The notes beneath the pieces are model-generated. The model worked only from the letters and a program-made list of their open reading frames with translations. It searched no databases and was not told where the DNA came from. Positions 14,866-39,825 of a DNA stretch of 64,000 nt are shown one piece after another; position 1 is the stretch's first letter; each line of letters starts with the position of its first letter. Source of the DNA: Amphiscolops sp. MND2022. Its lineage: Eukaryota. Position numbers and translations under genes: made by a program. The stretch spans positions 30,070,001 to 30,134,000 of the forward strand of contig OZ076420.1 of assembly GCA_964187785.1 (NCBI GenBank), in the 5' to 3' direction.

Positions 14866-15549
14866 TCACTGTTTTTGGACATACAGTGTAAAAAGTGATT
14901 GAAGATTGTCGCGATTTTGTTCGCTGTTATATGAGTCTGTTGAACTCTCTCTAGACCTCAGTCTACTATTTTCCTGCGTAAAGCAGGTTTTGGGACGGTT
15001 TTCCCATAATTTCTGAGTATTTCCAACTTCGGCGTTCCGTTGTAGCCCACTGGACATTCGGTCCGTTACGGTGAAATCGGTCGGTCTTGGGCTCAGATGT
15101 GGCCCGTTGGACCCTCGGTCCACCATGGTGAAATCAAGTCTCCCCTGCGTTTCTAGCGTATTTTGAATAGCTGGAAGCACTGTATTTGTTATTGCAGCTG
15201 TGATAGCTTCCTGGACTTGAGAGTTCAAGCTAGTTTTGACCTCATTGAGTTTTCTAGACATTTGATTTGAGATTTCCTCATTAATCAACCTAGTGGTCTC
15301 AATTGTAATTTCGCTGTTTTCCCTACTATTGGTATTAAGCAAAGATCTGAAATCTTCACCTATAACGTTTGAACTTTGTTGTGGTCTACTAGACCCTGAA
15401 TCCAAATTCCCTTCGTTTTCGCTGATATTATTCTCCTCATCACATCTAGAGTAACTTCCAAGCATTATATCTACATTTTCTACGTCAGACATTATGTCCA
15501 ATTGCCTAGAGCGTCTCTCTTTGGCTTTCTGTCTCCTTGTTGATGGCAT
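14866..15549 (-). CDS. Orphan Gag N-terminal ORF in the 3' LTR (214 LTR codons plus 13 codons of host flank, 227 aa)
   Basis: Matches the Gag N-terminus (MPSTRRQKAK...SEQNRD, two amino-acid differences), then reads NLQSLFTLYVQKQ* from flanking DNA. Expression is unknown. Confidence 0.5.
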   Translation of the reverse strand: MPSTRRQKAKERRSRQLDIMSDVENVDIMLGSYSRCDEENNISENEGNLDSGSSRPQQSSNVIGEDFRSLLNTNSRENSEITIETTRLINEEISNQMSRKLNEVKTSLNSQVQEAITAAITNTVLPAIQNTLETQGRLDFTMVDRGSNGPHLSPRPTDFTVTDRMSSGLQRNAEVGNTQKLWENRPKTCFTQENSRLRSRESSTDSYNSEQNRDNLQSLFTLYVQKQ

Positions 15550-16557
15550 TGAACAAGCTTTGGAGATTAATAATGAATAGACAAACGGTCTATTATTCCA
15601 ATAAGTCTTGCAACGTAACAAATTGAATCAGCAGTGTATATAGTTGATAGTTTCACGAAATCAGAAAGAATCATCCTGGGGCCTACGGGTCCCCGCTATA
15701 TATACTTCACATTGCATGACCAGCAAAATTATGCTGGTCATGTTACTAATAATAGCTCCCGGGTTATGTTTTGATACATGACGTCAATATTACTACATCA
15801 AATTGCGGCTAAATATAGCATCAGGGCAAAATGGAGGGATTGACCAATGGTCTGTAAGTGTGACATTAGTTCTAAAATAAGCACTTTTGCTACAAATAGT
15901 TGCATGTTTACTTCAATATTTCATGTCTAACAAGTATCATAACAAACAAATCATCCATTAATACTGTATTAATAGACTTAAGGTCCGAGTAACTACATCA
16001 GCTTATTTAAATTGCAGCTCTAAAAGGTAATAACCGCCGCGGACTGACAGTACGCGCGGCTACAGTGAACATAATAGCATCAACTAATTGGCAGCTAATA
16101 ACACCGCGGTAGACCTTCGGTCCACGTGGCTACAGCAATAGTATTAATAAGAGTGTACAGCACGCTGATTGGTTTATTTAAGTAAGGCCGGTACGTACAC
16201 TGGTTGTCAGCAAGCGTTCATTTGAACACGTTTCCTAGTATTCAGCAAGCATTGCACGTATTACTTTACTTTCGATTGATTATATTACAAATTCATTCAA
16301 TCATTCAAACAGGTACAGGAGTCACCAATTAAGTATATCCCCGTAATGTAAAATTGAAAACTAAGATGTAGCCGTGTGGACCACAGGTCCGTCACGGTAA
16401 AAATATAAAATAGCACTATTTGGATAATATTAAACATAGTTTTGAGTTATTTTACCGTAAGTCTTTCAAATTGCCAATACTCCGGGTGGGGGATTAGATT
16501 CTACATATTCTTGGGGAATTTGATAATAATTCCCGTCACAGGCGGCAGCCTGCGACA
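14907..16557 (-). repeat. Element A 3' LTR (1651 bp)
   Basis: Direct repeat of 29292-30942. About 11 substitutions counted by eye, no indels seen. Confidence 0.96.
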
Positions 16558-16897
16558 CTCCCCCAGGGACTAGAAGTACTGTCCCTTGGTTCATTCCAGC
16601 TAAGTAAGCATCTCTTCGTCTCTGTTGGTCGTAATGCGTTTCGCCTCGTCTTGAAGTCGACTCAAGGTACGTCAGGACTGCAGTCTCGCGGATTTGTTCG
16701 TACGATCTGCCACACACAATGCAATCTCCATAAGCTGCAGCGTTCGGTTCACCACAGTTTGCTCCAATTCGCACACTAATCCCCTGAATGTGAGAGTTTA
16801 CGGGCACAGCAAAATCTGTCACATTGGGGCCAACGTAATCATAACGATTGTAGCTGGGCCCTTGTTCGCACAGAGGTGGAGAGAGCGGCGTGTCCAC
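16466..16897 (-). CDS. ORF-Z: accessory CxxC-containing protein of unknown function, running into the 3' LTR
   Basis: YGDCIVCGRSYEQI...RRDAYLAGMNQG aligns with element B's YSSCMVCGRSVDAI...RREAYLNGLNAG (45951-46445). The last ~30 codons lie in the LTR. The true start is uncertain. Confidence 0.7.
   Translation of the reverse strand: MDTPLSPPLCEQGPSYNRYDYVGPNVTDFAVPVNSHIQGISVRIGANCGEPNAAAYGDCIVCGRSYEQIRETAVLTYLESTSRRGETHYDQQRRRDAYLAGMNQGTVLLVPGGVSQAAACDGNYYQIPQEYVESNPPPGVLAI
16558..16564 (-). other. Short polypurine tract GGGGGAG of element A
   Basis: Directly abuts the TG start of the 3' LTR on the minus strand. Confidence 0.65.
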
Positions 16898-16969
16898 CTG
16901 AGGGACAAGTTTTGAGCACTGGTTGATTGGACAATTGTTCTCTCTGCCGATTGCGTCTGGGCCAGTTCC

Positions 16970-17287
16970 TCATTCGACTATTGCTGTTTTGAAATCTTCA
17001 GGCCAAAAGTCCGAAAAGTCGTCCCAGGGGAACTCGGGCAACCCGTCATCCACGCAGCTAGAGAGATCTGTAGTCATCTTGCGTGTGGCATTCTGTTTAG
17101 GTGGGGCAATTGGCACGTGGCGATAACAGGCGATGACTTCTATGTCACTGTCGTCCGAGTGACGTTCGGTCCCTTGCGCTGACACAGACAAGATGTCTAC
17201 ATCCATATCTTCCTCTTCCTCTGAAGAGAAGTAGGCTGGGCTGACCAAAGAATTGGCCAATTCGTCAATTGTGAATTGAGTTCCCAT
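16970..17287 (-). CDS. Acidic small ORF, in frame with ORF-Z (probably its 5' part)
   Basis: ATG start, in the same frame as 16897-16466 and separated by one TGA. NSL..Y.SSEEE is echoed in element B at ~45595-45660. Confidence 0.45.
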   Translation of the reverse strand: MGTQFTIDELANSLVSPAYFSSEEEEDMDVDILSVSAQGTERHSDDSDIEVIACYRHVPIAPPKQNATRKMTTDLSSCVDDGLPEFPWDDFSDFWPEDFKTAIVE

Positions 17288-18621
17288 CTGAGTTTTATAT
17301 TTTCTAAGGAGGATTTTCTTAGCAATTTTGAAGTTTGCTAGTGGTCAACTGGTTTGGCTTTTGAAATTTGACTGAATGATTTTCTTCTAGTTATTCGGAC
17401 TAGTGGTTTCACCCTTTTTCGCGGGAATCCCCAGCGGGGAAACCGTTTTTCATCTTCTCTAAATTCTTCCCAAACATTCCATATTTGTAATTTTACGGAA
17501 TTTCTAGAAGTAACAACTGAGGTAAATTTCATGTTAATTGGTCTCTGAGGGACTTGTAAGTTATTTGCACAACTACTTGATAGTAGTGAATAGGTGTAGT
17601 AAGTGTTAACTCAAGTTAACACTTGGTAAATAAATTCACCATCAAAGACCTTCGGTCCGCGCGGCTACATCAAATCAAGTAGCCAATGAGGTGTCGTTGA
17701 TAAATGAATGATGAAAATTGATGAAAAATGAATGAAAATGGCGATTTTCTAAACTAATGCTACTCTAAACTGAGAAATGATTCCCATAATTGAATAAAGA
17801 CATGAATATCACTGGCAGTCTCAATCCATGCTAAAAGGGATTATGGTTGACTAAAGGTAGTAAGGGGGAGTTACATAATTGGTACATGGATGTAAATGAA
17901 AGGAGTAATTAGTAGGCCACGACGTCCAAGTAAGATAATTAGTAATCTACAGTCTTTGAGACTTAAAATACAGTATTACTTGATTGTAAGTCTAATGAAG
18001 TTTGAAAGTATAAGTAATAGTATAATTCAGTAATTAACTTTCTGTGTCTGTGAACCAGTATCTTTCACTTCTCTCTCTGACAATACTTGAATTGTCTATT
18101 AACCCGTTGGGTATCGTAGTCTCCAATACAGATCTACCAATTCGTTACCTGCATTTCCCTGACTCAATTGGCGTGTGTCAACTCCAACTTAGTCACATTC
18201 GACTCCCCATCCGCGTTGGACCTACAGTATCCCTGGCCTCAGCAGACCCGCCAATTTGGTTGTCCTGTTTTGAGTAACTACCTGTCCCCTACGCTTTGAA
18301 TTCGCTCTACTGCTTACTGTCATAACAATCGGTTTTGTTGAACCCAACCGACCGGAGGTCTCAGTGGCCACAACATTAAGGCAGGAAAATCAGGAATATC
18401 CGCAGTTCTTCAGGAAGAGAAAACAGAATATCCTAGCTTCCATTCAACTAACTTCTCCGAGTAACAATTGGCGCAAAGAATTTCGCTATTCCATCATGGA
18501 CGTAACGTCAGGTTGGTTCTTTTAGTTTCGTCTAAACTAAATTTGATCAGGATTTAGCTTTGACTGATTTTACTTCCTCCATCGTGAAATCTTTTCAACT
18601 TTGGTTGAATTTTTGAACTGT

Positions 18622-18633
18622 ACTTCCGGAAGT
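18622..18633. promoter_or_regulatory. Palindromic ETS-type site ACTTCCGGAAGT just upstream of the antisense gene ATG
   Basis: 17 nt before ATG 18651. The equivalent position in element B retains ACTTCCGGAAAGT (44158-44170, minus). Confidence 0.45.
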
Positions 18634-18650
18634 TTTGACTAAGCGGCAAG

Positions 18651-21600
18651 ATGGACAAGTTTGCAGGAAGTGAACCGCGTAATTTCATTCCTTTCTATTT
18701 AGGCGAAAGGTCAAACGGCCAACCACGCCAAGTTCCGGCACAAGATAATGAAAATGAGGAACCTCCTATGAATCCTGCAACTGATGTAGCCGAAGAGACA
18801 GTTAGTCCGGGGACAACAGAAAACGAGTTGCCAACAGATCCTAGAACCCAATCTACTTCTGTTCATTTGCTTCCAAGTGCCATAGAAATCATTGAAGGAA
18901 CTTCTTCCCAAGGTTCAACTGAAAAAGACCCTTCCGAACCGATCGATTCGTCAACTGCTGCCTTGAAATCCTTTTCGTCAAACATCCCTCAGTCTCCTGA
19001 TTACTCACCATCGTTACTCAATCTTCTCAAGTCTGACAACAGCAGTTCAGGAGAGAGTGTGCAATCTTATTTTACGAAGAAGGTGTCAAGGATAGAAAAG
19101 GGCCTGAATGAAAGCCCATTGGTCGTCAGTCCTTCTAGTTCGCAGAAGGAAAGTGTCAGTGATCCAATCACCATTAATCCTGGCCCAAGCACACAAGTTG
19201 AAACAGACCTTGAGGCCGCCAAGCCAGAAGATGATACCCCCGCTCAGCAGCTGGACCCACTAGAAACTGAGTCTGAACATGAGGGTGGGCAGGTAGCTAG
19301 TAAAAGACCTAGAATAGGCAGTACTACTGCATTTGGTAGTTACCCCCAAACTGAATCCCAGCCAGCAAACCTCTCGGAAAACAAAGAGCCATCAGTCCAA
19401 TCGTCTGATGAAATGGAACTGGAGGGGGCCCAGGCTCATGCTGCATTGAGTAGTTCTGAATTTGCGGTTGACACTGACCATGATTCCATCACCAACCCTG
19501 CAGGGTCTACTATTGGTCAAGCATTGAAAGCCAGAACTAATAATCATGCTGCTGGGGTTAATGATACTGACGCTGCTTTTCTCCCAGTAGGTTTACCCAG
19601 TACGTCCCGAAATACTTTGCTGGGACCTAGCAGCCGAGCTTTAATCAAAGAGTTCTTCACAAACTCGGAGAAATTTGACTTCCCTAAAGGTCACCCAACT
19701 GTTGCTTTCACGGAGGACCAGATCAGCACAGTAATCAAGGCTGTTGCTGATGAGACCACCCGGTCCACCATTGGAATTATGGAGAGTCTAATTCAGAAAG
19801 CCAGTCAACTAAGGATTGGGCCTGATGATGATCTTGAGAATACCCCTAGTAAATCAGGAAGTCGGTACCCAAGAAGGGCAGGAAGTGTTTCGTCGGGACG
19901 GCATAGCGATACAAGTGGGGCCATTCGTAGCGATGATAATTTTTCCAGCATTGGCTACTCCTACGAGGGTTCAGATGTTGCTATGATCGACGTTCCTCCA
20001 GGAACCAGTGTTGGTGTTTCTTGTGGCTCACATGACCCAGCGTCCGACATGGAGATACCTGACGCAGACAGTCCCGGGACGCAAACTCTAGCTGCTTTGA
20101 AAGCTGAAGCCCTTGGAGCCAAAAATAAACATACCCGGAATAAGCGCGGCAAATTCACTTCAAAGCCTCAAGGTAGTAATACCCGTCGCAAGATCACTCG
20201 TTCATGCAAAATCATGAAAGAAGCATATTTCCAGGGTATGGAGTGGACTCGGACCTTCGTCTCTGGCCCGATGGACCCTCGGTGGAACCCCTATAAGTTC
20301 TACTGCCAAATTTGCAAGGCAAATATTTCAATTTACGGGAAAGGGGACCGAGAAATTTTACGCCACCATACCACGGAAAAGCATCTCCGTAAAGACCAAA
20401 GATGGAGATACGAGTATTTATGTACCGTTGATCCGGTTACTCGAGCGAAGATTCATCACGTGCGAGGAAAAGATGGAAAGTTGCTGACTCCTTATCAGTT
20501 AGAAATGGAGTTGCCAAATTTCATCAATGCTCCATTAGTTGAGATTGGAAAGAAGCTCCCATTTTACGACGAGTACATGGCTGGAGCTGATTACATGTCT
20601 TCCTCGTCTGGTAATCGGGCCCGAGTGCAACTCTCAGTCCTCGCAAATTTCCTTCCCTACAATGGTGACATCGAACTCTTGAAATCATTCTGGGGTGACG
20701 TGGGCGTGATCGTCAACCATCAGTCGCTGTTTATTGATTTTAATTGGGGAAAAGAACGACTAAGCGTAAGTTCTGGTTTATTTGATACTAATTTACCCTG
20801 ATGTAGACGTTTTAACTCCAAGGTTTGTTCATTCTTGAGTCTTGTTCTGTTTGGTTTCAGCTGCTATTTCATCACATGTTTCTGGAACTAGTGTCTGACG
20901 TTGCCACTCACGTGAACCTCAACCGAGAGTACTCTGTCGAATTTGCTGTCGATGGGGTCTTCCTCCTGATCTTCATTCGCTTTTGGAGAGCTGACGAGCT
21001 TTGCAGGGTTTTCCTCAAACGGACCAGTCGTCTCCAGGGCCTGATCAGTGCTGAGATGTGTCTCCTCTCGTACCTGATGGGTGCTGTGTCAACTACTCCC
21101 AAATTGATTTGCGCAACTGGGTGCAGTGCACGGACTGTCGAGCTGCTTGACCAGAGCCCTTACGGGACTTTCAGTATCCAAAGCCCACCCAGATTCGAGG
21201 AGCTTAATTTGTTCCAACTAATGCACAGGAAGTGCAGTAGCGTCTTTGGCAAAATAGACTTCTTCTCAGTCTTGCGATACTTGGTCATTTCGCTCGGGGG
21301 ATGTCTTGAACTCGATTGGGTCCTCCTATCCCCAGAGTTATCCAAAGTACGTATTGTCTTTCTAGTCAAACAGTCTTATATGTCGTAGTCATGTATTCCC
21401 ACAGTTGGTGTTTCTGGCACCCTCCGAGACTTCAACCTTATGTTCTTATTTGCAGGCAATTCGAACTGGACAACTTGACATTTGTGGGCTTCTTTCTCTT
21501 TGTCATGAACTTATGGACAATTGGTCTAAAGTCACTGCATACCTGAGTAAGCACGCCCCAACTCAAGAAAACCAAGCGGTCCGAAGACAGGTAATTCTTA

Positions 21601-22894
21601 AAACTTTGGTCAGGCTTCGCGTACCCTACGTCCACAGTGATATAGACTTTTGTTCTTTTAGCCCCAGAATTTAGAGTGGTCTATAGTACATGACGACTTG
21701 TTCCCTAGCAAACTGGAGTTATTCTACCGATTGATAAGGGATTGTTAGTTATCTTCCTTTTAGTTTCACCTAAGTTCTGCGCATTAGTCCTCAAGGTTCC
21801 TACTTCTTGTTTCAGATACTGGCAGTTTCACTCTCAATTTGAAGTCTAGAAGGGACCGCGGCTTTCATGTGTATAAAGAGCTCTGCCAATTTTTATTCAA
21901 GCTCGGGCGTCGCTGTGTACGGACTAGTGGTCTTCCAGCCGAGAACGACTTTCAGGCTCTCCTCAAACTCTCCTTTCCAGATGCAAAGGCTTTGAGTGTG
22001 GAAGATTTTATCAGCCGCTCCAAGTTAGAAGCGAGACTCAAAGTTGGATCCAAGTTGAAGGCTGAGAAGGAAATGACTGAGGAGAAGAACAAAGGTTTAT
22101 CGCTTGCCGAAGTCACCGCCTCCATTCAGGAAGAATTTGGTCGACTAGCCCGAGGGTACGTAGCCAATCTACTGAATTCTACACAAGCACTTTCGCGCTT
22201 TACATCAGACATCGTCAGAGGTTTAGGTTCCTTCGATCTTGAAATTCTATTGGTTGATCCTGTTGAGCAGGCTAGTTACTGTTTTAAACAACTTTTTACG
22301 AGCTTCAGACTGCGGGGTGTCTTCCAATCCGATGAGGAGAGTATTTATCTGGAAGAATATTTATCTTTCATTGATGAATTACGCCGAGTTCACCCAGAAG
22401 TCCAGCAGCCAAAACTGTTGATAAATGATGCCGTCTATTTTATTTCTCAGCAGGAATTTTTAAAGCCAAGACGACACCTCACCCGAATTTTCCAGCTAAG
22501 TTGCCTCTGCTTGGATGAGCCGAGATTCTCTTTCCCTGCTGTCCGGTTTGGATCAGTGCGAACGCACGAGCCTACTTGCAGTATGTTTGATATAGTTGCT
22601 CCAATTCAATCCTACTACGGGAGTGTTGCACGCGGACTTGACAATCTTATCTCCGAAGCATCTATTGAGCGTTTGTTGGGTTTGGAACAGACCTTTGGGA
22701 CGACTGGCCTCAGCAACACATATAGTCCATGGGATGGCATTGATCGCTTTGGCCGAGACCGAATCAGAGACGCTATCCATACCAAAGCTCCAGTTCGACA
22801 TAAGGTCACTATTGCTACTGGAGTCTCTTCTGATCAGCCCGAAAGCAGTAGGAGTACAAAGTCTTCAAGTCCTAAGAAGTCCGTTAAGTTCTAA
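18651..22894 (+). CDS. Antisense cargo gene of element A: 5 exons, 1315 aa, C2H2/BED-like zinc finger plus hAT-transposase-like body
   Basis: join(18651-20765, 20861-21346, 21405-21590, 21662-21743, 21816-22894). Introns are 95, 58, 71 and 72 nt, all GT-AG, phases 0, 0, 0, 1, with no internal stop. Zinc finger CQIC-x16-H-x5-H at 20304-20384. The hAT assignment comes from motif resemblance only. Confidence 0.85.
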
Positions 22895-23072: not shown

Positions 23073-26000
23073 CTAGTATCTGTATTCGTCAGTGAAGTTG
23101 GGGGTGGGGTTAGGACGAAGGTTATATTTTCCTCCCCTAGGACTTTTATTGTCTACTGACACATCATCATTTTCATCGTCTAATACTTCGGGCACGATAG
23201 TATCGCTCCCTCCTGATGATTCAGGATCATCATTTTGTTCAATTAAGCGATCTGAGCCTGTTTCTTGAGTCATATCAAAATCGTCATTTTCGTGTAGCCC
23301 GGGGGACTCAAGGTCCTCGGTGGTAAAATTGGTATCGGGGGCCCTGGCGCCCTTTTCATGATGAGGCCCGGTGGACGTAAGGTCCACGTCGGTGAAAATC
23401 TCGTCGTGCGTAGCGGTATCATTGTCACGGGTACTAGAATTGTCTAGGTCATCTTGGCACATAGGAATTGCATGTGTATCTGCAGAATTGGGAAATTCTC
23501 CAAAATTTGTTTCCCAGGTAATGACATATAAATCGTCTTGCGGTATAATAATTTCGTCGTCCGGGTGCAAATTGCCTTCCGGTTTGATGTCCTGTAAGAC
23601 GGTGTTCGGTTCATATTTGCGCAGCCTGATTCGGTGTAGGAGTTGCGTTTTGTTGGAATTTAGTTTTCTAACAATGTAATTTTCATTTGGCAAAACTTTT
23701 TCCACAATATAAGGTCCGATCCAACGATATTCACGGAATGGAATTTTCGATCCTTGGTGGTCAGCAGTAGGTTGCAATATAAAACAATAGTCATTCTGTT
23801 TCAAAGGAGCCGCTTTGGCCTTGCGGTCATAGTATTCTTTGTACTTCAAATATGACTGCATGATGTTTTTCTTCGTGGAATCTAGTAATATTTGCGTGCG
23901 TCGCTGAAATTCGTCTGCAAAATCCGTAGTCGGTAGGACTTTAGGGTTAGGATTAAGGCCCAATTTGTGATCCAATATGTTATATGGGATCCGTCCGTGG
24001 AAAATTCTAGATGGTTCACATCCCAGGGTGGCATGATAAGTCGTATTGTAGTTCAATACGGCTAGCGGCAGATATTTATGCCACTGTCGCCTGTAGTCCC
24101 CTGAAGCCATTTTAAGGTTCGTTTTGAGACTAGCATGTGTACGTTCTAATTTACCGATCGTCTGTGGGTGTTTTGTAGTTGCGCATTTTATTTGGATTCC
24201 TAAGATTTGAGCAATTTCAGCCACCAGCTTGGACGTGAAGGCCGTACCTTTGTCAGTAATCAAGGTAGTAGGCAGAAAAGTGTGTTTAGTCATTATGTCT
24301 ATGATGACTTTTGCCGTATTTGTGGCCGAAGCGTCCGTGACTGGATATGCAAAAAGATATCTTGAAAATACGTCCAGCGCGGTGATGATATTTTCGTATC
24401 CGCCACTTGGTGGTAAATTTGGTAACAGATCAATTTGCATTGCATCCTCTGGTCCAAGGTCCCATTCAGGCAAATTAAGGAGTTCAGGGGTGATAGAGGC
24501 ATTTGGAATCCTTTTGTCCTTGATACAAGTTTCACATCCCTGAACCCATCTTTTGACAATTTGCGCAATTCCAGGGTAGTAATATTTTTGTCGAATTTCA
24601 ATAAGCATTTTTGATATTCCTGGGTGTTTATTTGCTTTCCCGTGTAAAGATTCAAGTAGTTCTGTAATTAAATGCTTTGGTAAGAGTACTTGATTGTATT
24701 TAACAGATCCTGTTTCATCAAAATACTGCCTAGTGATAATTTCATCCATGACGGACAGCCGGTCCATTTGGCGACAGTAATGTTGGTATCAATTGTCTTG
24801 CATTAATATGGCCTCGGAGTAGTTTTCTTTCAGAATTTTAAGGCGCAATTGTTGTAGGATGACATCGTTGTTCTGTTCGATTGCTATAGTGTTTGTATAA
24901 GATAATTTTTGAATTGTTGTTAGTTTGTGATAATCGCTTTTGTGTGTAGTGAATTTTTCGAATGAGATATCTGGTAGTGGATTTGCTGGATCGTGTCTTG
25001 CGTCCCTTTTACGTTGTAGAATTTGTTCTTCCGTCTCGTTGTCATCCTCCGTGTAGAAAATTTGTTCCTCTTCCGACACTCCCGCCGATTGGACATGTAG
25101 TTCAATCGGTGTTGTTGGGATATCTTCTCTTATCCTGAGGATCAATTTTTCTTTTGGAGAGATTTCAAGCCGGGACAGATAGTCTGCGGCGGTGTTGTTT
25201 TTGCCTGGTATATGGGCAATTGTGAAATTAAACTGGATAACATAGTCACATGCGTTCCATAGTGTTGGTGGAATGATTTTTGTCTGAAAAAATCGTGTGA
25301 CTGATTTGTTGTCCGTAAGTATTATCACCGGTTTTGGGGTTCCCCAAATTATATGTCCAAATTCCTTGAAGGCGAAGAAAATGGCCAGGAATTCTTTTGC
25401 ATAGATGGACATTTTCAATTGGGTAGGACTAAAGGTCTTGGATCCATAAGCTACTGGTGCAAAGGCTTTCCTCGTAGATGTATATTTCTCGAGGGTATCG
25501 TCTTCGATGAGAACTGCGTACCCTGCGGCCGAAAAGCTAGCGTCGGTCATAAGGGCTATTTGCTTGTTCGGTAGGGGTTGTTTGAGTGCCAGTTCACAAC
25601 ATCGATCAAGAGCCTTATTTAGTTCGGTGAATTTCTCCAGGAGGTCCGGTGTGATCAGGACCTTTTTATCTTTCGTAAGCAATTTGAAAAACGGTGTTAG
25701 TTTTTCTGATAGCCTTGGGATGTAATTCCTGTAATAGTTCAGGAACAACCCCAAGTAACGCTGAAGTGCTTTCTTGGATTTTGGAAATTTCGTATTTTCC
25801 AGAAAAGTTTGGACCCGTGGTCGTTGCGGCTTTACTCCTGCCGGAGTGATAGTGCGACCCAGGAAATCAATTTCGGTTGCGCCAAAGTGACATTTATGCA
25901 TTGTAAGTTTCAGTCCGGCTTTTTGGATGCATTGGAATGTGGCTCTAAGGTTTTTGATAAGTTGTTCGGCATCATTAGCTGCTATTCCGATATCATCAAC

Positions 26001-28171
26001 ATATTGGGCACATTGGTCGGCTTTGATGACTTTGTCCAAATATTCGCGCATGAAGCTAGAAAAGGCCGATAGGGCTCTGCTAAGTCCTTGTGCTAGCCTT
26101 TTGTACGCAAAGGTTCTGCTGGCGAAGTTGAAGGCAAGCATTTCGATAGACCTTTGGCCAGCCATTTGTAAACAGTGGTAAGCTTGCGAGCAATCCAGTT
26201 TACAGAATAGCTTCTTTCCAGCCATATGTTGGGCTGCATCATTAAGTGTACTCACTGGATGATTGTTGTTAATGTAGTCATCCGAGATCAGGTTGTTAAT
26301 TTTGCGTAAATCGACTAGAAGTCTCAATTTGCCATTGGGTTTCTTTCGTGCGAAAATGGGACTGGCGTATTTGGAGAATGGTAGAGTTGTAATTATCCCA
26401 TAGCGGTGTAGTAGGGCCAATTCCACAAGGATGTCCTCCTTGAGATTGATGGGAGTTGGCAAACTCTGACTATAGGCTGGGGAGTCATCTTTCGGGGTTA
26501 ATTTGACCTTGAAGTCTTCGTTCATGCCTATGTCGAAGCGATGCCTAGCAAAGATATCATGAAATTCAACAAGCAGGTCCTCTATGCGGGCTATTTCAGC
26601 GGGTTGGAGCATAGAGTCAGTCCAATCAAAGTTGGATAAGAATTGGCGTCTCGACTCAGGGTCGTCCTGAGGATTAAGTTTTTCTAGTTCCTGAAGATTG
26701 ACGAGTTCTGATAAAATCCTTTTCTGGATAGGCGTATGATTCTGAGTATCTCCAGGGTTGTCTGGTGTTGGAAACCAATAGTTTTCCTTGAAGTCCTCAG
26801 GTTTGGTGGATTTGATCAAGCTACTTGCATAGTAAGCAGCGTTTTCAGGGTTGTCCTGCAACAGGTGCCATGTGGTTACCGGGTCGATAGGTTTGACATA
26901 TTTCATTTGTTCTGGCGTGAGAACAGTGAAATTAGCAACTTGTGTGCCCCTTTTGAGGGTGTAGGGGCTGTCCGTAAAATTGTTCAAATGAACTGAAACT
27001 TGACCATTGGTCAATGTGACTAGAGCGGCATAGAAAGCAATATCGCCGTCGTCCGTAAGGTTGTGGCTCGGTTGAAGGATCCCAGTAACTGTAGTGTTCT
27101 CGTACAGTTGTGTCGCCAGAAGGACCGAGTGTCGGTCATTAGGTGGGATGATTACATCCTCCCTAATGCAAATGGGTTCCATGACGTTTGTGTATTTGTG
27201 ATCGGCAGTTTTTAACTGCATTGAAAAGAATGGGAAATTCAGGACACCCTGTCGCATGTCCAGAATGGTGTTGTTCCTTTGAAGGAACGAAAGACCAATG
27301 AGTGGATCAGTGAGTTTTTCCATAACTATGAATATTTCGTGAAATTCAATATCGCCGACTTCAAACTTCAGTTCAACGGTGCTCTTTGGAGTCTCCAGCT
27401 GTCCATTAGCAACCATAATTTGGAAGCCAGGAGCCGGGCCCTCTTTGACAATCGACTGAGGGGCAAGTAATCGGATTTTACGTAGATCAGCTTCTGGGAT
27501 TGCGCTAGATAGGGCTCCCGTGTCTACAAGGCCGTCTAATGTTAGTTCGCCAAAATCCATCGGAAAATAGAGCATTCGTCTCTTGTATTTGAGGCCAAGA
27601 TTAGTTGTTAGCGGTACATAGTCTGGTTCACCTGTTCCTGTGATTAGGGTGTTCACAAAACGGGCAGCAACTGTTGTGGCCAGTGAGACCTGTGGTCCCG
27701 CACGGTGGAATTCATCGTCGGGCTCAGCCTGCATGACTTGAGATCTCTGAGGTGTGTCATGTTGCCATGGATCGACCTTGGCTTTCACAAGAACCATATT
27801 CAAGGTTCGGTCAATTTCATAAGAATCTGGTTCTCTGATGTGATTTGGTTGGTTGAAATTACGGTAGAAGTATAGATGATGTTGATTGTAGCAATTAGCG
27901 TCCCAATAGGGATCAAAACCATAGTCCGGGTCCGGGTAATATGGGTTATAGTCATCAACAAGAGGTATGAGACGTATAGTCGAAGTATCATGTTGTAGTC
28001 TGTTGGACATAGGGTCCGGAGAGGTAGGTGGAGTCTTCATCTGCTGCTGCCAGTCAGCTGATGATGTTTCTTTAAGAGAGGTATAATATTCAGTGTAATA
28101 TATGTTTGAAGGGTCTGATATTATGTATTGTCGGACACGAAGTTTTGTATTAAATTGGAGTCGTGGCAAAT
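23073..28171 (-). pseudogene. pol: Element A pol (protease-RT-RNase H-integrase), split by one nonsense codon
   Basis: Protease LVDTGA (27516-27524); RT QYVDD (25992-26003); RNase H TDAS/KEFL/TDNK/ADYLSR; integrase HHCC, D-D-E and WIGPY. A single in-frame TGA at 24789-24791 lies where element B has CGA. Confidence 0.95.
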
Positions 28172-29934
28172 CTAGTTTTTTGGGTTTTTCAGGATAGAGG
28201 TTGTTTGTTTGTTTTGGGCATCATTATTACTAGTGGACGGGTCGTCGGTTTTGAAGTCCTCTAGTTTAAGGTTTTTGGGCTTGAGGTGGGCTCCAGCGCC
28301 TTTCCAACATCGTTCGGCCGGGTGGTTCGTTTTGTCGCAAGTTGGACATTTTGGATATTCTTGGTATCCTGCCCGTCATTGCGTCGTTGTTCCTCCTTTC
28401 TTTTAAAATTTCGGCAGTCGTCTTTGACATGTCCCGGTTTCTTGCAATAGTTGCAGGTAATGTTAGGGTCGATGCCAGAAGAAAGAAGGCCAGTTCCCGG
28501 TCGTGTTGCTGTAGGGGCAGTGGACATTGTGGGTACTGGAATGTCGTCCCCCTCCTCGAGTCCATTGAGCTCTAGCTCTCGTTCTAAATGGGTGACAATT
28601 TCCTCATAAGTAGCGTTTTCAAGTCTAGCCATGTTGACTGAACGTTTCAAATTCGGCGGCAATTTGGCATATAGGAGGCTGTCAATCATTGCCTGGGCAT
28701 TCTCGCCAAACGCTTTTTCGGCTCCTTGGTTGAGTTCTTCAAGGAAGTCTGGCAATTTCATGGTATTTGGGTCAAACACCAATCTGTGCCATTTGTGTTT
28801 GGAGGTCGCCTGGGACTCTGGTTTGACATATTTTCGACGAAATACTGCCAGGATTTCCTCCAAGGTTTGCCTGTTTGCCGTATTAATGTTACGGAAAGTT
28901 TGTAGGGCATTCTTTCGTAACAATGAATGAAAATGATTGATTTTCATTGTTTCAGTCATATCCGGCTGCATTTTAATCATTGTATGAAAGAGATCTTCGA
29001 AAAGTTCAAATTTCTCAGATTTACCGTCAAAAGTCAGTGTGGTGGAACTGACAGGTCGTACCATTAGCGTTTGTGCTGATGGACGATTGTTCATGCCAAC
29101 CAATACTTCAGCCAGACGGTTAATGGGGTCAGAACCGGTAGTAGGTGCCGTAGTCTCAGAGACCTGGGGGATTGTATCCTGAGTCTCGTTATTGTTGGAA
29201 TGTTGACTTTGCAGTGGTTCACGGGATTGCATGGGACGTCCAGTGAGGAACTCAGGAACCATATGTGGGGTAGGGTTGGCTCCTGTCACCATGTCGCGAT
29301 TTTGTTCGCTGTTATATGAGTCTGTTGAACTCTCTCTAGACCTCAGTCTACTATTTTCCTGCGTAAAGCAGGTTTTGGGACGGTTTTCCCATAATTTCTG
29401 AGTATTTCCAACTTCGGCGTTCCGTTGTAGCCCACTGGACATTCGGTCCGTTACGGTGAAATCGGTCGGTCTTGGGCTCAGATGTGGCCCGTTGGACCCT
29501 CGGTCCACCATGGTGAAATCAAGTCTCCCCTGCGTTTCTAGCGTATTTTGAATAGCTGGAAGCACTGTATTTGTTATTGCAGCTGTGATAGCTTCCTGGA
29601 CTTGAGAGCTCAAGCTAGTTTTGACCTCATTGAGTTTTCTAGACATTTGATTTGAGATTTCCTCATTAATCAACCTAGTGGCCTCAATTGTAATTTCGCT
29701 GTTTTCCCTACTATTGGTATTAAGTAAAGATCTGAAATCTTCACCTATAACGTTTGAACTTTGTTGTGGTCTACTAGACCCTGAATCCAAATTCCCTTCG
29801 TTTTCGCTGATATTATTCTCCTCATCACATCTAGAGTAACTTCCAAGCATTATATCTACATTTTCTACGTCAGACATTATGTCCAATTGCCTAGAGCGTC
29901 TCTCTTTGGCTTTCTGTCTCCTTGTTGATGGCAT
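28172..29934 (-). CDS. gag: Element A gag (starts in the 5' LTR; two CCHC knuckles; 1 bp lesion near 28361-28376)
   Basis: ATG at 29934 (MPSTRRQKAK). Capsid-like region FDGKSEKFELFEDLF. Knuckle CNYCKKPGHVKDDC, plus a second knuckle CPTCDKTNHPAERC (28348-28307) in the -1 frame, ending at TAG 28172-28174. Confidence 0.9.
28175..28181 (-). promoter_or_regulatory. -1 ribosomal frameshift heptamer A-AAA-AAC at the gag/pol junction
   Basis: CCA AAA AAC TAG in the gag frame; a -1 shift gives AAA AAA CTA GAT TTG CCA, the pol frame. A_AAA_AAC is the established MMTV/HTLV gag-pro slippery site. Confidence 0.75.
29274..29291 (-). other. Primer-binding site TGGTGACAGGAGCC... of element A
   Basis: Immediately follows the LTR-terminal CA. 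Starts TGG (complement of tRNA CCA); the first 9 nt resemble tRNA-Leu-type PBSs. The primer tRNA is not confirmed. Confidence 0.75.
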
Positions 29935-30942
29935 TGAACAAGCTTTGGAGATTAATAATGAATAGACAAACGGTCTATTATTCCAATAAGTCTTGCAACG
30001 TAACAAATTGAATCAGCAGTGTATATAGTTGATAGTTTCACGAAATCAGAAAGAATCATCCTGGGGCCTACGGGTCCCCGCTATATATACTTCACATTGC
30101 ATGACCAGCAAAATTATGCTGGTCATGTTACTAATAATAGCTCCCGGGTTATGTTTTGATACATGACGTCAATATTACTACATCAAATTGCGGCTAAATA
30201 TAGCATCAGGGCAAAATGGAGGGATTGACCAATGGTCTGTAAGTGTGACATTAGTTCTAAAATAAGCACTTTTGCTACAAATAGTTGCATGTTTACTTTA
30301 ATATTTCATGTCTAACAAGTATCATAACAAACAAATCATCCATTATTACTGTACTAATAGACTTAAGGTCCGAGTGACTACATCAGCTTATTTAAATTGC
30401 AGCTCTAAAAGGTAATAACCGTCGCGGACTGACAGTACGCGCGGCTACAGTGAACATAATAGCATCAACTAATTGGCAGCTAATAACACCGCGGTAGACC
30501 TTCGGTCCACGTGGCTACAGCAATAGTATTAATAAGAGTGTACAGCACGCTGATTGGTTTATTTAAGTAAGGCCGGTACGTACACTGGTTGTCAGCAAGC
30601 GTTCATTTGAACACGTTTCCTAGTATTCAGCAAGCATTGCACGTATTACTTTACTTTCGATTGATTATATTACAAATTCATTCAATCATTCAAACAGGCA
30701 CAGGAGTCACCAATTAAGTATATCCCCGTAATGTAAAAATGAAAACTAAGATGTAGCCGTGTGGACCACAGGTCCGTCACGGTAAAAATATAAAATAGCA
30801 CTATTTGGATAATATTAAACATAGTTTTGAGTTATTTTACCGTAAGTCTTTCAAATTGGCAATACTCCGGGTGGGGGATTAGATTCTACATATTCTTGGG
30901 GAATTTGATAATAATTCCCGTCACAGGCGGCAGCCTGCGACA
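29292..30942 (-). repeat. Element A 5' LTR (1651 bp)
   Basis: Runs TGTCGCAGG...AATCGCGACA on the minus strand; flanked by the TSD and the PBS. Confidence 0.96.
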
Positions 30943-32055: not shown

Positions 32056-33834
32056 TGTCGCAGGCTGCCGCCTGTGACGGAACGAGAATAACAACGACAA
32101 CAATTGGGCAACAAATCGCACCCGGAACTTTGCCCATCTATTGAGGTGAACCTTACACAGCAATCAGAAAAACTAGAGTTTTTTTGCGGTATTAAGGAAA
32201 CTTTCCAATTTTGATGTTGCTATTTTCATATATTATTATTGGATTCAAATATTTAGATTGGTCTGTTAACAAATTACGATTTGAGGTATCCAAATCAAGA
32301 AACCAAATCTATTCAAGCTGCAATGTATGTAAGTTGAATTGGAAAGAACTGTGATAAACTGGATGCAATTAATCAGCCGAAAGGAAACGTGTTCAAGTGC
32401 GGAAACGTCCTTTCTCGGCAGCGTTGGCTACAGTTCAGAAACTAGCCAATCAGAGTGTAGTATATATACTTTGTTGTTACGCAGGATATTTCATCATGCC
32501 AGTTACGACCCTTTGACCAATTAAGGCTGCAATTCTTGTGATGAAAGTCAAACGGCCTATTCATGCCAATTTTGGTCCTATTCATACAAATGCTTTACTT
32601 AACGAATAATGATGCGCCTTTAATGAGAAAGGATTTGATGGCTTCTTTCATACGTATTAGTAATTATATTCTGTTGCCCATTGATGCTAAACATACAGTG
32701 TACCGGCTCTTGGAACTATTCTGACAGAATTGTCAGGTTTGGAATTTTGCCAAAGTGCCCTTTCTGACCACCATGAATTTTCTTGGCATATAAAAGAACT
32801 GTCACGGTGCTAAATGAAATATTTCAATTAAATATTCAGCCTCCATGAGTAGGCACGTGCTTGCAAAGGAATGTTCACATTCCTGTAATTCTGACCGCAA
32901 GATGATTCTTTGATGTGTTGTTGACATTTATTATTGTTTTGATCTTCCGTCTATGGAAATATTTAGAATATCACGTGTAAAAAAACTCTCATTCCTTTAT
33001 CAGGCTGACATGGGATTCATGCCCTAGTCTGACGCTTTTAAAGATTCTGCTTTGAAGTATATATGATCTTTAGAACATGTGAAATTTGGAATGTTGACTT
33101 GATTAACCAATCATGTAAAAAATGTGAGTGTCATGCTGACGGGAGTATATATAGCTCCTACTTCCCCAAGCTGACACAGATTTAACAAACCTCATCAAGT
33201 TTAAACCTGTTCTGAACCTGTTTTGGGAATAATTTTCCCGATTAAAATATTTTATTATATAAAATAGGATTTTCTTGATGCCTACCACAAGGAAGCAAAA
33301 GAAAGCCAGAAAGTCTAGACAATCAGTTATGTTTTCTTATATTGAGAATCTTGATATAACGTTAGGAGGAATTAACTTAGAGAGAGAGAGAGGAAAACGA
33401 GTCTAGTAACGTTGGCAGAAGGCCTGATAATCCTAGTTACAAAAATTTGATGAACCAGAACACTAATTCTCACTCTGACTCACGCGAAGCTGAAATTAGA
33501 ACTTTTGCCTAAAATGGCCAAAATTTCAGGGACACTGATTGTAACAGCGAGTTTATTAGACTGTCAGGAGAAATGATGAGGTTTTTTAGGAGCACTGTAA
33601 GCTCCCAGATACAAAGGGCCATGAACGAAGCTATAAGTGATCAGATTTTGCCCTAAGTTCAAGCTACTTTAAGGTCCCGACAGGGACAGTGGCCTGAAAG
33701 AAGTTGGGAGATTCCAATTAGACGACAGGGGGACAGATCTGAAAAAGCCTTAAACCGAATATTCAGAAGCAATTCAAGAGATGAGTTGCCTGGGTTCCCA
33801 AATAACAACGAAGACCTAGTGAGCACTCACGACA
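32056..33834 (+). repeat. Element B 5' LTR (1779 bp)
   Basis: Runs TGTCGCAGGCTGCCGCCTGTGACGG...CACTCACGACA. Visibly diverged from the 3' LTR (roughly 10-15% by eye). Confidence 0.9.
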
Positions 33835-36800
33835 TGGTGGCAAGAGACAACGAATCTCCAAACCATATCCCCGAGTATTTTACCGGACGAATCCCATCGT
33901 GAACCGCACTCAACCAATCCGCTCGTGATAACAAAGATCTCCTCGCAACGACATTAGATGCAACTTAACGCAACTTAACAAACTCCTCCAGTGGCCGTAC
34001 AAGACCCAATCAATAGACTAGCTGACGTCTTGACAAATCTCGAGAATCGTCCAACAGCCCAACAGCAAATCACTATTCGCCCAGTCAATTCCAAAACGAT
34101 GACTTTCGATGGCAAAAGCGAGAAATTTGAGCTGTTCGAGGACTTATTCCACGCGATGATCAAGATGCAGCCAGAAATGTCTGAACAAAAGAAATTCAAC
34201 CATTTTTACCCACGTCTTAGGAAGGGAGCACTTTAGACCTTCAGATGTACTAGTCATGTTCAGCCGAAAATACGTCAAACATGAATCTCAAGCGAATGCC
34301 AAACATGAATGGCACCGTTTGGTCTTTGACCCTAACTTGATGAAACTACCAGACTTCATCGAAGAGTTGAACCAGGGGCGGAGAATGCATTTGGAGACAA
34401 CGCACAAATGATTGGCAGCTTCGTCTACGCAAAACTGCCACCAAAACTAAAAAGATCAGTCAACATGGCCAAATTAGAAGATGGCTCTTACGTTACGACG
34501 AAATTGTTGTCCATCTCGAGAGGGAATTAGAGCATAACACCCTTGAGAAATCAGATGACCTGCCAATGGCTACAAGATCCTCCTCAACATCTAATCCTAA
34601 AACCCTTCTCTCCTATACACTACTATCCGATATCGTCTGAAGTTATGCAAGGAAACGGGCCATATGGTCAAATACTGTGAGAAGCTTAAGAAGGAGAAAG
34701 AAAAAGATGCCCAAAAAGGCAAACCAACTGAAAAGAAAACCTATCCTAAATGTGTAACTTGTGGCAAAACAAATCACCCTGAGGAATGATGTTGGCAAGG
34801 TGCAGGAGCACACCTCAAGCCTAAACGCAATAGGGCTGAAAACTCATCGGATAACAATCCAAATTCATAAGCGTAAAAATCGTGAAATAACTCCACATCG
34901 TCCAGATCCCAGTACTCATCAAAAAAGGACGATCCAAGAAACTAACTTCGCCACGACTCCAACACCACCAACTACTATCAGTTCGACAATTTGTCAGATC
35001 TGATCCTCCAAATACAGTCCTCCATGAATATCAACAACAGTTGATGGGGTGTATCCCTCTCTTATCTGGAAGGAACAATTTGTAAAAGCAACTCTCATCA
35101 CTTATAATAACACCCATTTGTACCAAAAACCATTTCTTATATGGGGCCCTGATTACACCACAAACTTTGCAACCCGATCCAGTTCCGTTCCCTTAACCGT
35201 TGACTACAACGCAACTACATCGATCCAGATTATGGCAGAGATCCCTACTGGGACACCGAAATCTATTACCGGGACTTGCTGCAATTCCAAGAAAACTAAG
35301 GCACTCATAGAAATTTGGCAAATGATTGATGGCTCCACCCATCAAGTGTTCCCTAACCCCTTGGGGACCGAGAAGATACAAGCTAACATTGAGCCAATGC
35401 CTCAATCGCTATTGGATGAAAAACAAATCCAGAACGTCCTTATCACTGCAGAAGGTGAGCCAGATTGTATACCACCTGATTGTATACCCACATCAACCTC
35501 AAATGCAAGAAACGCATGTTGTACTTCCCAATGGACTTTGTGGAAATAACCATAGACGGCCTAATCGACACGGGGGCATTGTCCAGTGCAAATCCTAAAA
35601 GGGACCTCCAAACAATCCGCTTACTTTTTCCACAATCAGTTGTCCGTAAGATCCGCTTCCGAATTTTCAACTAATGGTCTCTAATCGACAAACAGAAACT
35701 CCTAAAAGTACTGTTGAACTGAAATTTGATGTTGATGATATCGAGTTCTATGAAAACTTCATATTAATGGACAGTCTGACAGGACTGATAATTAGACTAT
35801 TGTTCCTTAGGAGAAACCATACAGTTCTGGATTTAAGGCGAGGCATTTTGAATTTCCCATTCGTTTCGATGCAGCTCAAAACAGCTGATCATCGATACTG
35901 TAATGCCCTTGAACCAATCATAATTCCAACTGAAATCACCATTCCACCAAAAGATAAATTCCTAATCAGGACAAATTCCCTGCTCTATCCAGAGAACGCA
36001 AAAACTGGCATCCTCCAGCCAAGTGACCTTCTACACGAAGAATGGGACATTTCATTTTGTCTACCGTTAGTCACATTGGCCGATGGCAACGTTCAAATAC
36101 CAGTGAATAGTTTCCAGAACCCCTATAAACTTAAGAAGGGACTGCATTTTGCTAACTTTTCATTCATGACGCCAGAACAGATGAAATATGTCAAACCGGT
36201 TGTCCCGGTGTCAACATGGCATCTACTACAAAATGACCAGGAGCAAGCAGTCCACAATGTCAGCAGTCTAATCAAGACAAACAAGAATCCTTACCTACTC
36301 CAGAGAATTCTGGAAACCCCGACGAACTCACGCCTATACAGAAAAGAATCCTACGGGAAATCACAGGCCCTACAAGACCTGGGGACACTGGTCCCACAAA
36401 AGATGAGGAATCCTGATCAAAATTCCCAGAAAACTGGAACGATTCCACTCTTGCGCCTGATGAAATAACGAAGTTTGAAGAATTACTAGCGGATTTCCAT
36501 GATATCTTTGCAAGACACCGATTTGACATCAGCATGAATGAGGAATTCAAGGTGAAATTGACACCTAGGGACATTTCCCCAGCTTACCGTCAAAGTCTTC
36601 CAGCACTGATCAACTTGAAAGAAAACATTCTCGTCGAACTATCCATGCTGCACAGATATGGCATAATCACCACACTTCCGTTTTATAAATATGCTAGTCC
36701 AATAATTGCACAAAAAAGCCTAATGGGAAACTCCGACTACCGGTAGACTTGAGAAAAATCAACAACTTAATATCGGACGATTATATAAATAGTATTCATC

Positions 36801-39800
36801 CCGCTAGTACCCTAACTGATGCTGCCCAGCTCATGGCACAGATAAAACTCTTTTGTAAACTGAATGTTCACAAGCATATCATTGCTAACAGATGGCTGAC
36901 CAACGCTCAATTGAGATGTTGGCGATCAACTTTGCTAGCCGCACATTTGCATATAGACGTTTAACACAAGGCCTTAGCCGGGCGCTGTCCGTATTCTCAA
37001 GTTTTATGTGAGAGAATACCTTGACAATGTCATCAATGCGGACCAATGTGCTCAATATGTGGACGACATCGGCATTGCGGCCAATGACGCTGACAACCTC
37101 ATTGTCAGCCTAAGAGCAAATTTCAAATGCATTCAGGATGCCTTATACTGTCGATGCACAAAGTTCATTTCGGTGCAACAGAAATTGTCTTCCTCGGACG
37201 AACCAACACCCCTCAATGCGCCAAACCCCAAAAGCAATATTTACTGAACAATCTTGTGAAGACCAACGTACCGAAGTCGAGTAAACTCTACAACGCTATT
37301 TGAGATTCTTGAATAATACCGAAATTAGGTCCCAAGACTGCCTGAACGCCTTGCCCCATTCTACAAGAGGCTCAAAAGAGATGAAAAGGTCCTAGTGTCT
37401 AAAGAATTGGTTCAACATTTTGAGGAAATTAATAAAGCATTAGACCATTGTTGCGACCTACCTCTCCAGCGACCTCTCCCTAACAAACAAATTTTCTTAA
37501 TGACGGACGCAAGTTTCGTTGCTGCATGGTAAGCAATCCTGATAGAAGACGACCCTAATCAAAAATTTACCTCACGCCGCAAGTCATACGCACCGGTGGC
37601 TTATAGTTTGAACACCTTTAACCCAGTCCGAATCAACATGTCTATTTATGCAAAAAAACTTCTGGCAATTTACTTCGCATTCAAAACATGTGAACGTTAT
37701 TTCTGGGGTGCACCGTAACCGATCATTATCCTGACTGACAACAAAACTGTGACACGATTTGTTCAAACAAAGATTGTACTTCCAGCCCTGTGGAACGCTT
37801 GTGACAATGTCATTCAATTCAACTTTGTCATAGCTCACATCCCAGCAGTCCAGAACACAGCGTCGGACTCCCTATCTTGTCTAGAAGCGGATCCGAAAAA
37901 CAAACTAGTCATGAAAAACCGCGAAGACGTACAAACCCTACCAGTCGAAATCAATGTTAAAGCAGCAAGACTATTCCAAGAAGAACAAATATTCTATACA
38001 ACGGATGAAGATGAAGCTGAAGAACAATACTGGGCGTGGAAAGAAGCAATTCGAAGAAGTCCCGCCACCACAGAATCAGCCAAAACAATTCAGTCACGTT
38101 TCTACAAATTTGATAAATTAGCAACCTGGGACACAAGTCTGAATACGGAAAAACTAACCGATCATTATCGAGCAATCTAAAGATGCAGTATTACAATTGA
38201 AGGCAAAACTCCTTCAAGAAGAATCCTCAGACAACGTACTGCAACAAGATGCCCGATATCGACATTACGCTAACAATTTAGAGCGAACTTTAGTAAAGGA
38301 AGACATCTTAACTCGGTAATTTTTTAATGAAACGGGGAAGGTGAAACACCATCAGATACTTCTCTCGCAACACTTACTCCAGGAATTGCTTCAGTACCTT
38401 CACCCTGGTATATCGAAAATGTTCCTGGAGATAAGACAAAGGTATTATTACCCTAGCATGGCCAAACATGTTAAAAGGTGGGTAGAATGTTGCAAACATT
38501 GCGCAAAGGACAAAAAAGTCCCCAATGCAACAATCACGCCTGAACTACTCAACTTACCGGATTGGTACCATGGACTGCCGAATCTATCAAGTGGAGGATA
38601 TGAAAATGACCTAACAGCAATTGACGTCTTTTCACGATATCCTTTTGCTTATCGTCTTACAGATGCTTCTAACAAACCATCGAGCAAAAGTTATCATTGA
38701 CATGATGACCAAACATGCATATCTACCAACAACGCTGGTTAGAGACAAAGGAACTGCGTTCACGTCCACGATCATTGCAGAAATTGCATAAATACTTGCC
38801 GCTTGGAGTTCTGAACCATAAAACAAGTTATCAGTGCAAGTATCGACTGCGAACCAACGCGAGTAATTCACGGCCGCATTCCTCACAATATCTTTGACCA
38901 TGAACTTGGAAATAATTCAAACGAGCAAATTAGCAAATTACACCTTCAACTGAATTTGCTGAAGAAACACAAAATCGAACATAACACCTAATTGACTAAA
39001 CAAAGCAAAATATCATTCACTTCTATCTCAAATACAAGAAGTGTTACGACCGAAAAGCGAAAGCAGCTCCATTCAAATAGAAAGATTATTGTTTTGTGTT
39101 ACAACCCGAAGCTGATCACCAAGGGTCGAAAATCCCGAAATACAAAAAGTTTTACCTAGGGAAAGCTATTATGTAAGCCGACTCAACACGAATGTAAATC
39201 ACATTTTGCACCGTATTCGACTCAAGATATTTGTTCCCAATCAACCGTTTGAAAAAAGATTACAGCTGGATGAGAAATTTATCGTTCCGCAAGATGATCT
39301 GTTTACAATAACGGGGAAACAAATTTTGGTGATCTGTTAGAAACGCGAGGTAATGGACCTATTCCGACTCAATTGCCGAACGGCGAACAGCCGGGCACGT
39401 CAAACGACGAACCAAATGACGCAGACGAGAATGAAGCTGATTATGTAACAACACGAGACGGTCTGATTGACGTCAACGATGCAGCGCACTGTCGTATTGA
39501 AAGATCAATTGATGACGTTAACAAAAGAAACGAAGCTGATGAATACGCAAGGAATGAAAGACGTGATTGGCCGAATTCGGCCGTTTACCCCACAGTCAAG
39601 AAAAGTCTTTGCCGGATTTGTCCAAGGGACATGAAAATGATGTAAATCTTACGGAAGAAAACTCTTCAAATGGAAAGGATGCACAAGATTATCCATACAG
39701 GGAGGATGATATTATCCGAAATATTACAAAACGAAGAGAGAAATGAACGTCTGAGCCCGAGAGGAGGGCAAAAAAACCTCAGACCTAACCCCAACCCAAA

Positions 39801-39825
39801 CTACTGAGATGTCTTCAGTTACTAA
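33278..39825 (+). pseudogene. Element B gag-pol, many stops and frameshifts
   Basis: MPTTRKQKKA start in the LTR; FDGKSEKFELFEDLF; CVTCGKTNHPEE; IDTGALSSA; QYVDDIGI; integrase HPGISKM; ends NLRPNPNPNY. Confidence 0.9.

Follow-up and report, generated by a model that had tools for sequence, protein, structure and literature searches.

A conserved antisense gene with four introns, carried between pol and the 3' long terminal repeat by a clade of Gypsy retrotransposons in the animal Amphiscolops

Antisense open reading frames (ORFs) have been described in several Gypsy long terminal repeat (LTR) retrotransposons of plants under the name of aORF-3R, among them those of maize Grande (gene23), rice RIRE2, Silene Retand and bean PvRetro13, and for Grande gene23 a separate promoter upstream of the gene and a product located in the nucleus are reported (PMC7264820, PMC11963269); these and the other accounts cited here are drawn from parts of the papers named. 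In the fungi Botrytis and Sclerotinia, the Boty elements contain an extra antisense gene, brtn, between pol and the 3' LTR (PMC7264820, PMC8365987), and hbz of human T-lymphotropic virus 1 (HTLV-1), like other retroviral antisense genes, is an antisense regulatory gene of an LTR element (PMC7264820). Accessory coding is also found in animal LTR elements, namely planarian Burro and the ORF3 variants of bdelloid rotifers (PMC6431247, PMC5408684). The origin and function of the antisense ORFs of LTR elements have been called unknown, sequence similarity gave no support, in the parts of the study consulted, to an origin of the plant ORFs from nested transposable elements, and a search for antisense spliced transcripts has been urged (PMC7264820). 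Here we analyze element A, an LTR retrotransposon found in a stretch of 64,000 nucleotides (nt) from Amphiscolops sp. MND2022 (the window; contig OZ076420.1, positions 30,070,001 to 30,134,000), which carries on its antisense strand a large gene interrupted by four introns. All positions given below are those of the window. The host is an animal: of 14 candidate places, 7 match Wnt above the cut-off of the family.

Element A is a complete Ty3/Gypsy LTR element of 16 kb on the minus strand of the window. Its LTRs, of 1651 nt each, differ by 11 mismatches (99.3% alike) and have TG..CA termini, and a target-site duplication of 5 bp, AAGAT, is present at both flanks. The antisense gene, on the plus strand, sits between pol and the 3' LTR, tail-to-tail with the integrase, whose end is separated from the stop codon of the gene by 178 nt. 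The preliminary description of this DNA, which had placed such a gene at this position inside an element bounded by a target-site duplication, was therefore right on this point. As first proposed, five exons would join to 3948 nt, that is 1315 codons plus a stop, across GT..AG introns of 95, 58, 71 and 72 nt. Introns 1, 3 and 4 stand, and intron 2 had to be corrected to 109 nt, giving a protein of 1298 amino acids (aa) and intron phases of 0, 0, 0 and 1:

18651..20765, plus strand: exon 1, 705 codons
20766..20860, plus strand: intron 1, 95 nt, phase 0, GT..AG in 35/35 copies and 11/12 distant loci called
20861..21346, plus strand: exon 2, 162 codons
21347..21455, plus strand: intron 2, phase 0, 109 nt in place of the 58 nt first proposed, from the alignment of copies and the distant loci
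21456..21590, plus strand: exon 3, 45 codons
21591..21661, plus strand: intron 3, 71 nt, phase 0, exactly missing in L044 and L047
21662..21743, plus strand: exon 4, 82 nt
21744..21815, plus strand: intron 4, 72 nt, phase 1, GT..AG in 35/35 copies
21816..22894, plus strand: exon 5, through the stop, a mostly helical folded domain in the model

The acceptor at 21404, which corresponds to an intron 2 of 58 nt, was rejected. With this site, GT..AG is kept in 30/35 copies, versus 35/35 for the acceptor at 21455. In distant copies, the 51 nt that separate the two sites (21405-21455) fall to 20-55% identity, compared with 60-80% in the exons on either side, and they vary in length by non-multiples of three and diverge like an intron. 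Because the acceptor at 21455 is always kept and the additional 51 nt behave as intron, we retained the length of 109 nt. An AG is also found exactly 135 nt upstream of the intron-3 position in 12 of the 13 distant loci called.

We then considered the other copies in the genome, which has 1.07 Gb. With exon 5 as a query, 111 places were scored out of 7784 candidates, and in 84 of these places the match contains no stop; a gene piece from a distant subfamily, taken from a second element of the window (element B, described below), gave 150 scored places out of 3416 candidates. The segment is thus not unique to element A. These counts are lower bounds, biased to good copies, and since copies were located via the antisense gene, elements devoid of it fall outside them. 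In all 52 places examined, down to about 28% protein identity, the integrase lies tail-to-tail with the antisense gene (37/37 loci, corresponding to 36 distinct places including element A, then 13/13 distant loci and 3/3 further ones), and in none of these 52 places does the gene occur outside an LTR element. L033, whose integrase is 96% alike to that of element A with a gene at about 65% in DNA, was considered as a recombinant; this is not established, and the idea is weakened because the integrase core is 89-97% alike across the whole group and only its variable tail suggests a swap.

The region 20200-23100 was aligned in 35 other places, comprising the 29 top exon-5 matches (one re-fetched longer) and 6 selected for a range of 79-62% identity. 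GT..AG is retained in all 35 copies at introns 1, 3 and 4 while the intron bodies diverge. A distant set was formed by 15 loci at about 28-33% identity in the last exon, 13 of which were callable by pattern. In these loci the introns, 66-229 nt long, fall at the same codons, and the splice dinucleotides are kept at intron 1 in 11/12, at the donor and acceptor of intron 2 in 13/13 and 12/13, and at those of intron 4 in 12/13 and 13/13, respectively. Such conservation suggests that the gene is spliced. Furthermore, in L044 (at about 1745) and L047 (at about 1744), intron 3 is missing to the base and introns 1, 2 and 4 are present, which provides an independent confirmation of that junction. These sister loci branch basally within the distant group, and if the root is placed on the long branch separating the two subfamily groups, their lack of intron 3 represents one loss. 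This exact loss hints that a spliced message may have met a reverse transcriptase (RT). No loss of intron 4, which would be expected as a long open frame, was seen among the 111, 150 and 114 matches listed, the longest frame being 483 aa.

Outside this genome, a profile search of a public sequence collection returned 846 clusters at E <= 0.001. All matches are exon-sized among those listed, and the 10 that were looked up are unnamed. One of these shares no more than 26-31% identity with any sequence in the Amphiscolops genome; therefore, the family is present in at least one other genome. A full-length annotated relative (645-2000 aa) was absent among 7563 candidates, which is weak evidence.

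The ratio of nonsynonymous to synonymous rates (dN/dS) was calculated by the Nei-Gojobori method over 724 codons, each copy being compared with the gene of element A. Between subfamilies, dN/dS is 0.09-0.10 at dS 0.33 (dN 0.03) and 0.05 at dS 1.7-1.8 (dN 0.08); beyond this point dS saturates, with dN at 0.12-0.26. The other five reading frames give values of 0.13-3.4. Between subfamilies, the ratio is thus far from 1. The frame is open over the 724 codons in 19 of the 35 copies, including 6/6 in the youngest subfamily, where pairwise difference is 0.4%, and 8/10 in the next one. Altogether, the tests of selection and of intron conservation indicate that the antisense frame is not due to chance. 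We have very little doubt that the gene travels inside the element, that its four GT-AG introns are conserved in position and that it is under purifying selection as a protein.

Several observations weigh against a gene that every copy needs. Among near copies, dN/dS rises to 0.14-0.71. Of the 13 copies nearest to element A, no more than 3 are open over the 724 codons, so that the early expectation of an intact frame in young copies holds for the youngest subfamily and fails for these nearest copies. The integrase (about 438 codons) is open in 10/13 of the nearest loci and in 27/35 overall, versus 3/13 and 19/35 for the gene. Between subfamily groups, the gene retains 28-31% identity, versus 67-75% for the integrase core. 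Some lesions are also shared: copies on two contigs have the same stop at 21215, and two other places the same 10-nt deletion. Copies in which the gene was already broken have therefore transposed or recombined. These shared lesions speak for an action of the product in trans, and they would also fit with a dispensable gene. The pattern of open frames fits decay after insertion, perhaps faster than that of pol, and the product could be either supplied in trans or dispensable in some cycles. In element A itself, the antisense gene is open while pol and a second accessory frame, ORF X, are broken, which likewise agrees with action in trans.

The remaining parts of element A are as follows:

14907..16557, minus strand: 3' LTR, TG..CA, with AAGAT at 14902-14906
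16466..17287, minus strand: ORF X, second accessory ORF, sense to gag-pol and extending into the 3' LTR (equivalent to L061:1402-2223)
16558..16568, minus strand: polypurine tract adjoining the 3' LTR, from sequence reading
18490..18725, plus strand: DNA-conserved block, candidate promoter or 5' end of the antisense gene, with CCGGAAG at about 18626
23073..28220, minus strand: pol with protease, weak dUTPase-like stretch, RT, RNase H and integrase, from Pfam and other matches
28261..30012, minus strand: gag open frame starting within the 5' LTR, with a zinc knuckle and a DUF1759 match
29274..29291, minus strand: TGG-initial stretch resembling a primer-binding site and adjoining the 5' LTR, from sequence reading
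29292..30942, minus strand: 5' LTR, with AAGAT at 30943-30947

The Pfam order, gag, protease, RT, RNase H and integrase, is that of Gypsy elements, and the solved RT structures nearest to the RT of element A include foamy-type chains and 4ol8, which we take to be the Ty3 RT. The pol frame has one in-frame stop (24786-24788). A dUTPase-like match, weak (E 0.019), lies between protease and RT in the pol frame 24789-28220, at about aa 350-434. The gag frame begins in the unusually long LTR (29292-30012), and about 240 gag codons are duplicated in the 3' LTR (14866-15627).

The block 18490-18725 shows 78-82% DNA identity, versus about 65% in the coding exons, and third codon positions are conserved there too. 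It contains the first-proposed ATG as well as a candidate upstream exon of 16 nt (18496-18511, with an ATG at 18496 and a donor at 18512), followed by a candidate intron of 155 nt (18512-18666) that would join in frame at the acceptor 18666. Two in-frame acceptor-like sites are present in the block, whose motifs occur in 7/7 sequences covering the region; the eighth, L035, is tandemly duplicated there (L035:1-1290, a tandem duplication of part of the antisense gene). Both the first-proposed ATG and the short upstream exon are candidates for the 5' end of the gene. From this conserved DNA we infer that the gene could have its own promoter. ORF X, for its part, has 273 aa in other copies and is interrupted in element A by a single stop (16967-16969). 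It is open in all three other copies read and present in element B, and a search gave 150 scored places out of 4711 candidates. Its product, with an acidic N-terminus and a CxxC motif near its end, matched no Pfam family, and its C-terminal half is more similar between subfamilies than the antisense gene. ORF X and the antisense gene diverge head-to-head at about 1.4 kb from each other, a layout which suggests an internal, possibly bidirectional promoter between them.

Concerning the protein itself, exon 1 encodes a variable N-terminus rich in S, T, P and E, a basic patch at about aa 492-518 and a zinc finger, CxxC...HH....H, at about aa 549-580, in which CxxC and HH....H are invariant in 12/12 sequences. 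A search of Atlas with this finger gave leads at 0.84-0.86 toward hAT-type BED fingers; zf-BED gave no match in the Pfam search of the antisense protein. Judged by eye, the succession of strands in exon 2 resembles that of an RNase H-like core; the catalytic D, D, E triad is lacking, with no aspartates at the expected motifs, and this putative core gave no profile match. The fold model of exon 5 built from an alignment of 138 sequences reached a predicted local distance difference test (pLDDT) score of 86, versus 35 for the single sequence, which is unusable, and the protein shows a weak co-linear fold match to the C-terminal half of Hermes (PDB 8EDG), the half that in hAT transposases comprises the insertion domain and the PF05699 region. 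Three independent lines, from fold, zinc finger and domain order, thus lean weakly toward hAT transposases.

Searches by sequence were blank. Pfam, searched exon by exon and with every member of four alignments, gave nothing at the curated cut-off; the PDB searched by sequence profile gave nothing below E 1; an Atlas search with exon 5 yielded no usable match; and profile comparison (hidden Markov models and hhalign) with six hAT frames of the host, which represent at most five distinct families since two share their N-terminus, found no match. PF14291 and PF18658 were not matched in the genome, where the controls were also blank, so that this search is uninformative. The genome is rich in hAT transposons with long open frames (L051-L056, for example), and PF05699 gave 150 scored places out of 2215 candidates. 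Around the gene, the hallmarks of a hAT DNA transposon (terminal inverted repeats and an 8-bp duplication) are absent and its position is fixed within LTR elements.

Retrotransposition removes sense introns and keeps antisense ones. The genomic RNA of element A, which extends on the minus strand from one LTR to the other, would hold the gene as its reverse complement, and the introns would be copied into each new insertion because the spliceosome does not see them in this RNA. A separate plus-strand transcript would be spliced and translated. It is thus probable that the introns survive by virtue of their orientation, and that an internal promoter drives an ordinary spliced mRNA whose product acts in trans. 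Concerning the origin, an intron-bearing hAT transposase gene could have inserted antisense into an ancestral Gypsy element, keeping its introns, and would then have lost its terminal repeats and catalytic residues. The derivative protein would bind element DNA or chromatin, most likely promoting transcription or countering silencing; the VANC proteins of plant VANDAL transposons, which are anti-silencing factors, could offer an analogy. Selection would act through the lineages that continue transposing, as reflected in dN/dS. We propose only tentatively that the product is a nuclear zinc-finger DNA-binding factor descending from a hAT-type transposase, and its exact role is more tentative than its descent. 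Only a shade more doubtful than the hAT descent is the general picture in which a class II transposase was tamed by a class I element and turned into a selected, separately transcribed accessory factor of a highly successful retrotransposon clade. In this picture, the antisense introns behave as a natural indicator cassette and are now and then lost exactly, by recombination with cDNA made from the spliced mRNA. Taken as a whole, the explanation that we favor, with moderate confidence, is that a clade of animal Gypsy elements harbors, between pol and the 3' LTR and in antisense, a fixed accessory gene encoding about 1300 aa.

One could also assume that the same heritable spliced gene has a cellular or viral origin unrelated to transposases and serves the element in another way, for instance in exporting RNA, forming particles or opposing the defence of the host. 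The blank sequence-level tests of hAT kinship and the unnamed public clusters would agree with such an origin, the fast divergence of the gene fits a conflict with the host, and accessory roles of this sort have been proposed for the plant antisense ORFs. We nevertheless regard it as rather unlikely, in view of the weak preference of fold, finger and domain order for hAT and of the lack of any copy outside the element in the places examined. The same two points bear on the preliminary wording of a cellular-style gene, of which the heritable multi-intron character is retained and which may mislead as to the origin. A still-autonomous or recently nested DNA transposon, hitch-hiking in the retrotransposon, would be expected to bring introns, an antisense orientation and a zinc finger; however, the gene is not flanked by terminal inverted repeats (at best, scattered pairs of 15-31 nt with 71-88% matches are present), its place beside the integrase stays the same even in families at about 28% identity, and by eye no acidic triad is invariant at the expected motifs of exon 2 or exon 5, so that this very improbable explanation is largely refuted. 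Least credible of all is that frame and introns are a by-product of constraint on the genomic RNA strand or of a functional antisense RNA, since conserved third positions do point to DNA- or RNA-level constraint in the 5' block, whereas the low dN/dS is specific to the frame of the gene, splice dinucleotides are invariant while intron bodies saturate, intron 3 was lost exactly in frame and the protein alignment gives a confident fold.

Elsewhere in the window, element B is an older and decayed relative in the opposite orientation:

32056..48063, plus strand: element B, LTRs 83% alike, duplication GCACT

It carries both accessory genes in decayed form, the antisense gene at about 40276-43309 on the minus strand and ORF X at about 45909-46232 on the plus strand. 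A remnant of another LTR of the element A family, recognized by a gag N-terminus match and an LTR end motif at 7427-7834 (minus strand) and 8586-8629, is probably a solo or decayed LTR. Host genes were also noticed, with a Fringe-like glycosyltransferase exon at 5817-6392 (minus strand) and three exons of a radial-spoke-head-like gene at 50980-57431 (plus strand).

The case of this fixed antisense gene shows that an element transposing through RNA is able to inherit stably a full intron-exon gene, here in an animal clade of hundreds of copies over a wide divergence, with conserved spliceosomal introns and measurable selection. It would offer a natural system for the study of exact intron loss beside a reverse transcriptase and, if the hAT lead is true, a case of one transposon class taming another. 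Such genes are prone to be repeat-masked or miscalled as host genes, and in the public collection this one is present, among the matches listed, only as unnamed exon-sized fragments.

How does this gene compare with those already described? HTLV-1 hbz is a small spliced antisense gene driven from the 3' LTR, whereas the present one is large, lies about 2.1 kb from the LTR, has a probable internal promoter and is accompanied by no recognized env-type ORF. As in hAT transposases such as Hermes and in the domesticated ZBED, GTF2IRD2 and FAM200 genes, a finger that may be BED-like precedes a long folded region; unlike them, it shows no detectable sequence homology, no catalytic triad and no terminal repeats, and it is kept by a retrotransposon and not by the host. 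The brtn gene of Boty is reportedly multi-exon, in work said to be by Zhao et al. in 2011, and if so would be the nearest precedent for a spliced antisense cargo. Boty shares with element A the Gypsy location and the antisense strand; it is fungal, and no transposase-like origin is mentioned in the parts of its description consulted. The accessory cargo of Burro and of the rotifer elements is part of a polyprotein or an ORF3 made from spliced messages, and the consulted parts of these accounts do not mention an antisense multi-intron gene (PMC6431247, PMC5408684). The likeness to plant aORF-3R extends to the Gypsy type, to the antisense ORF between pol and the 3' LTR and, as far as the available text tells, to its presence in most copies of a family; a conserved antisense coding region at that place was indeed found among the copies located by the gene. 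The differences are the animal host, the size of about 1300 aa and the four conserved introns, the word "intron" being absent from the main text of the two plant studies (PMC7264820, PMC11963269). The Retand domain TRP28 (PF04195) gave no match in the antisense protein at E <= 1, and the host is not a flowering plant. Whereas a nested-element origin was not supported for the plant ORFs in the consulted parts of PMC7264820, a weak lead toward such an origin exists here. The full-text literature searched, a scope that leaves out subscription journals, supplements and Repbase, Dfam and GyDB, contained neither the element A family nor any animal Gypsy element with a multi-intron antisense gene. 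Antisense cargo is thus known in plant and fungal Gypsy elements, and the multi-intron case of an animal is new among the literature so covered.

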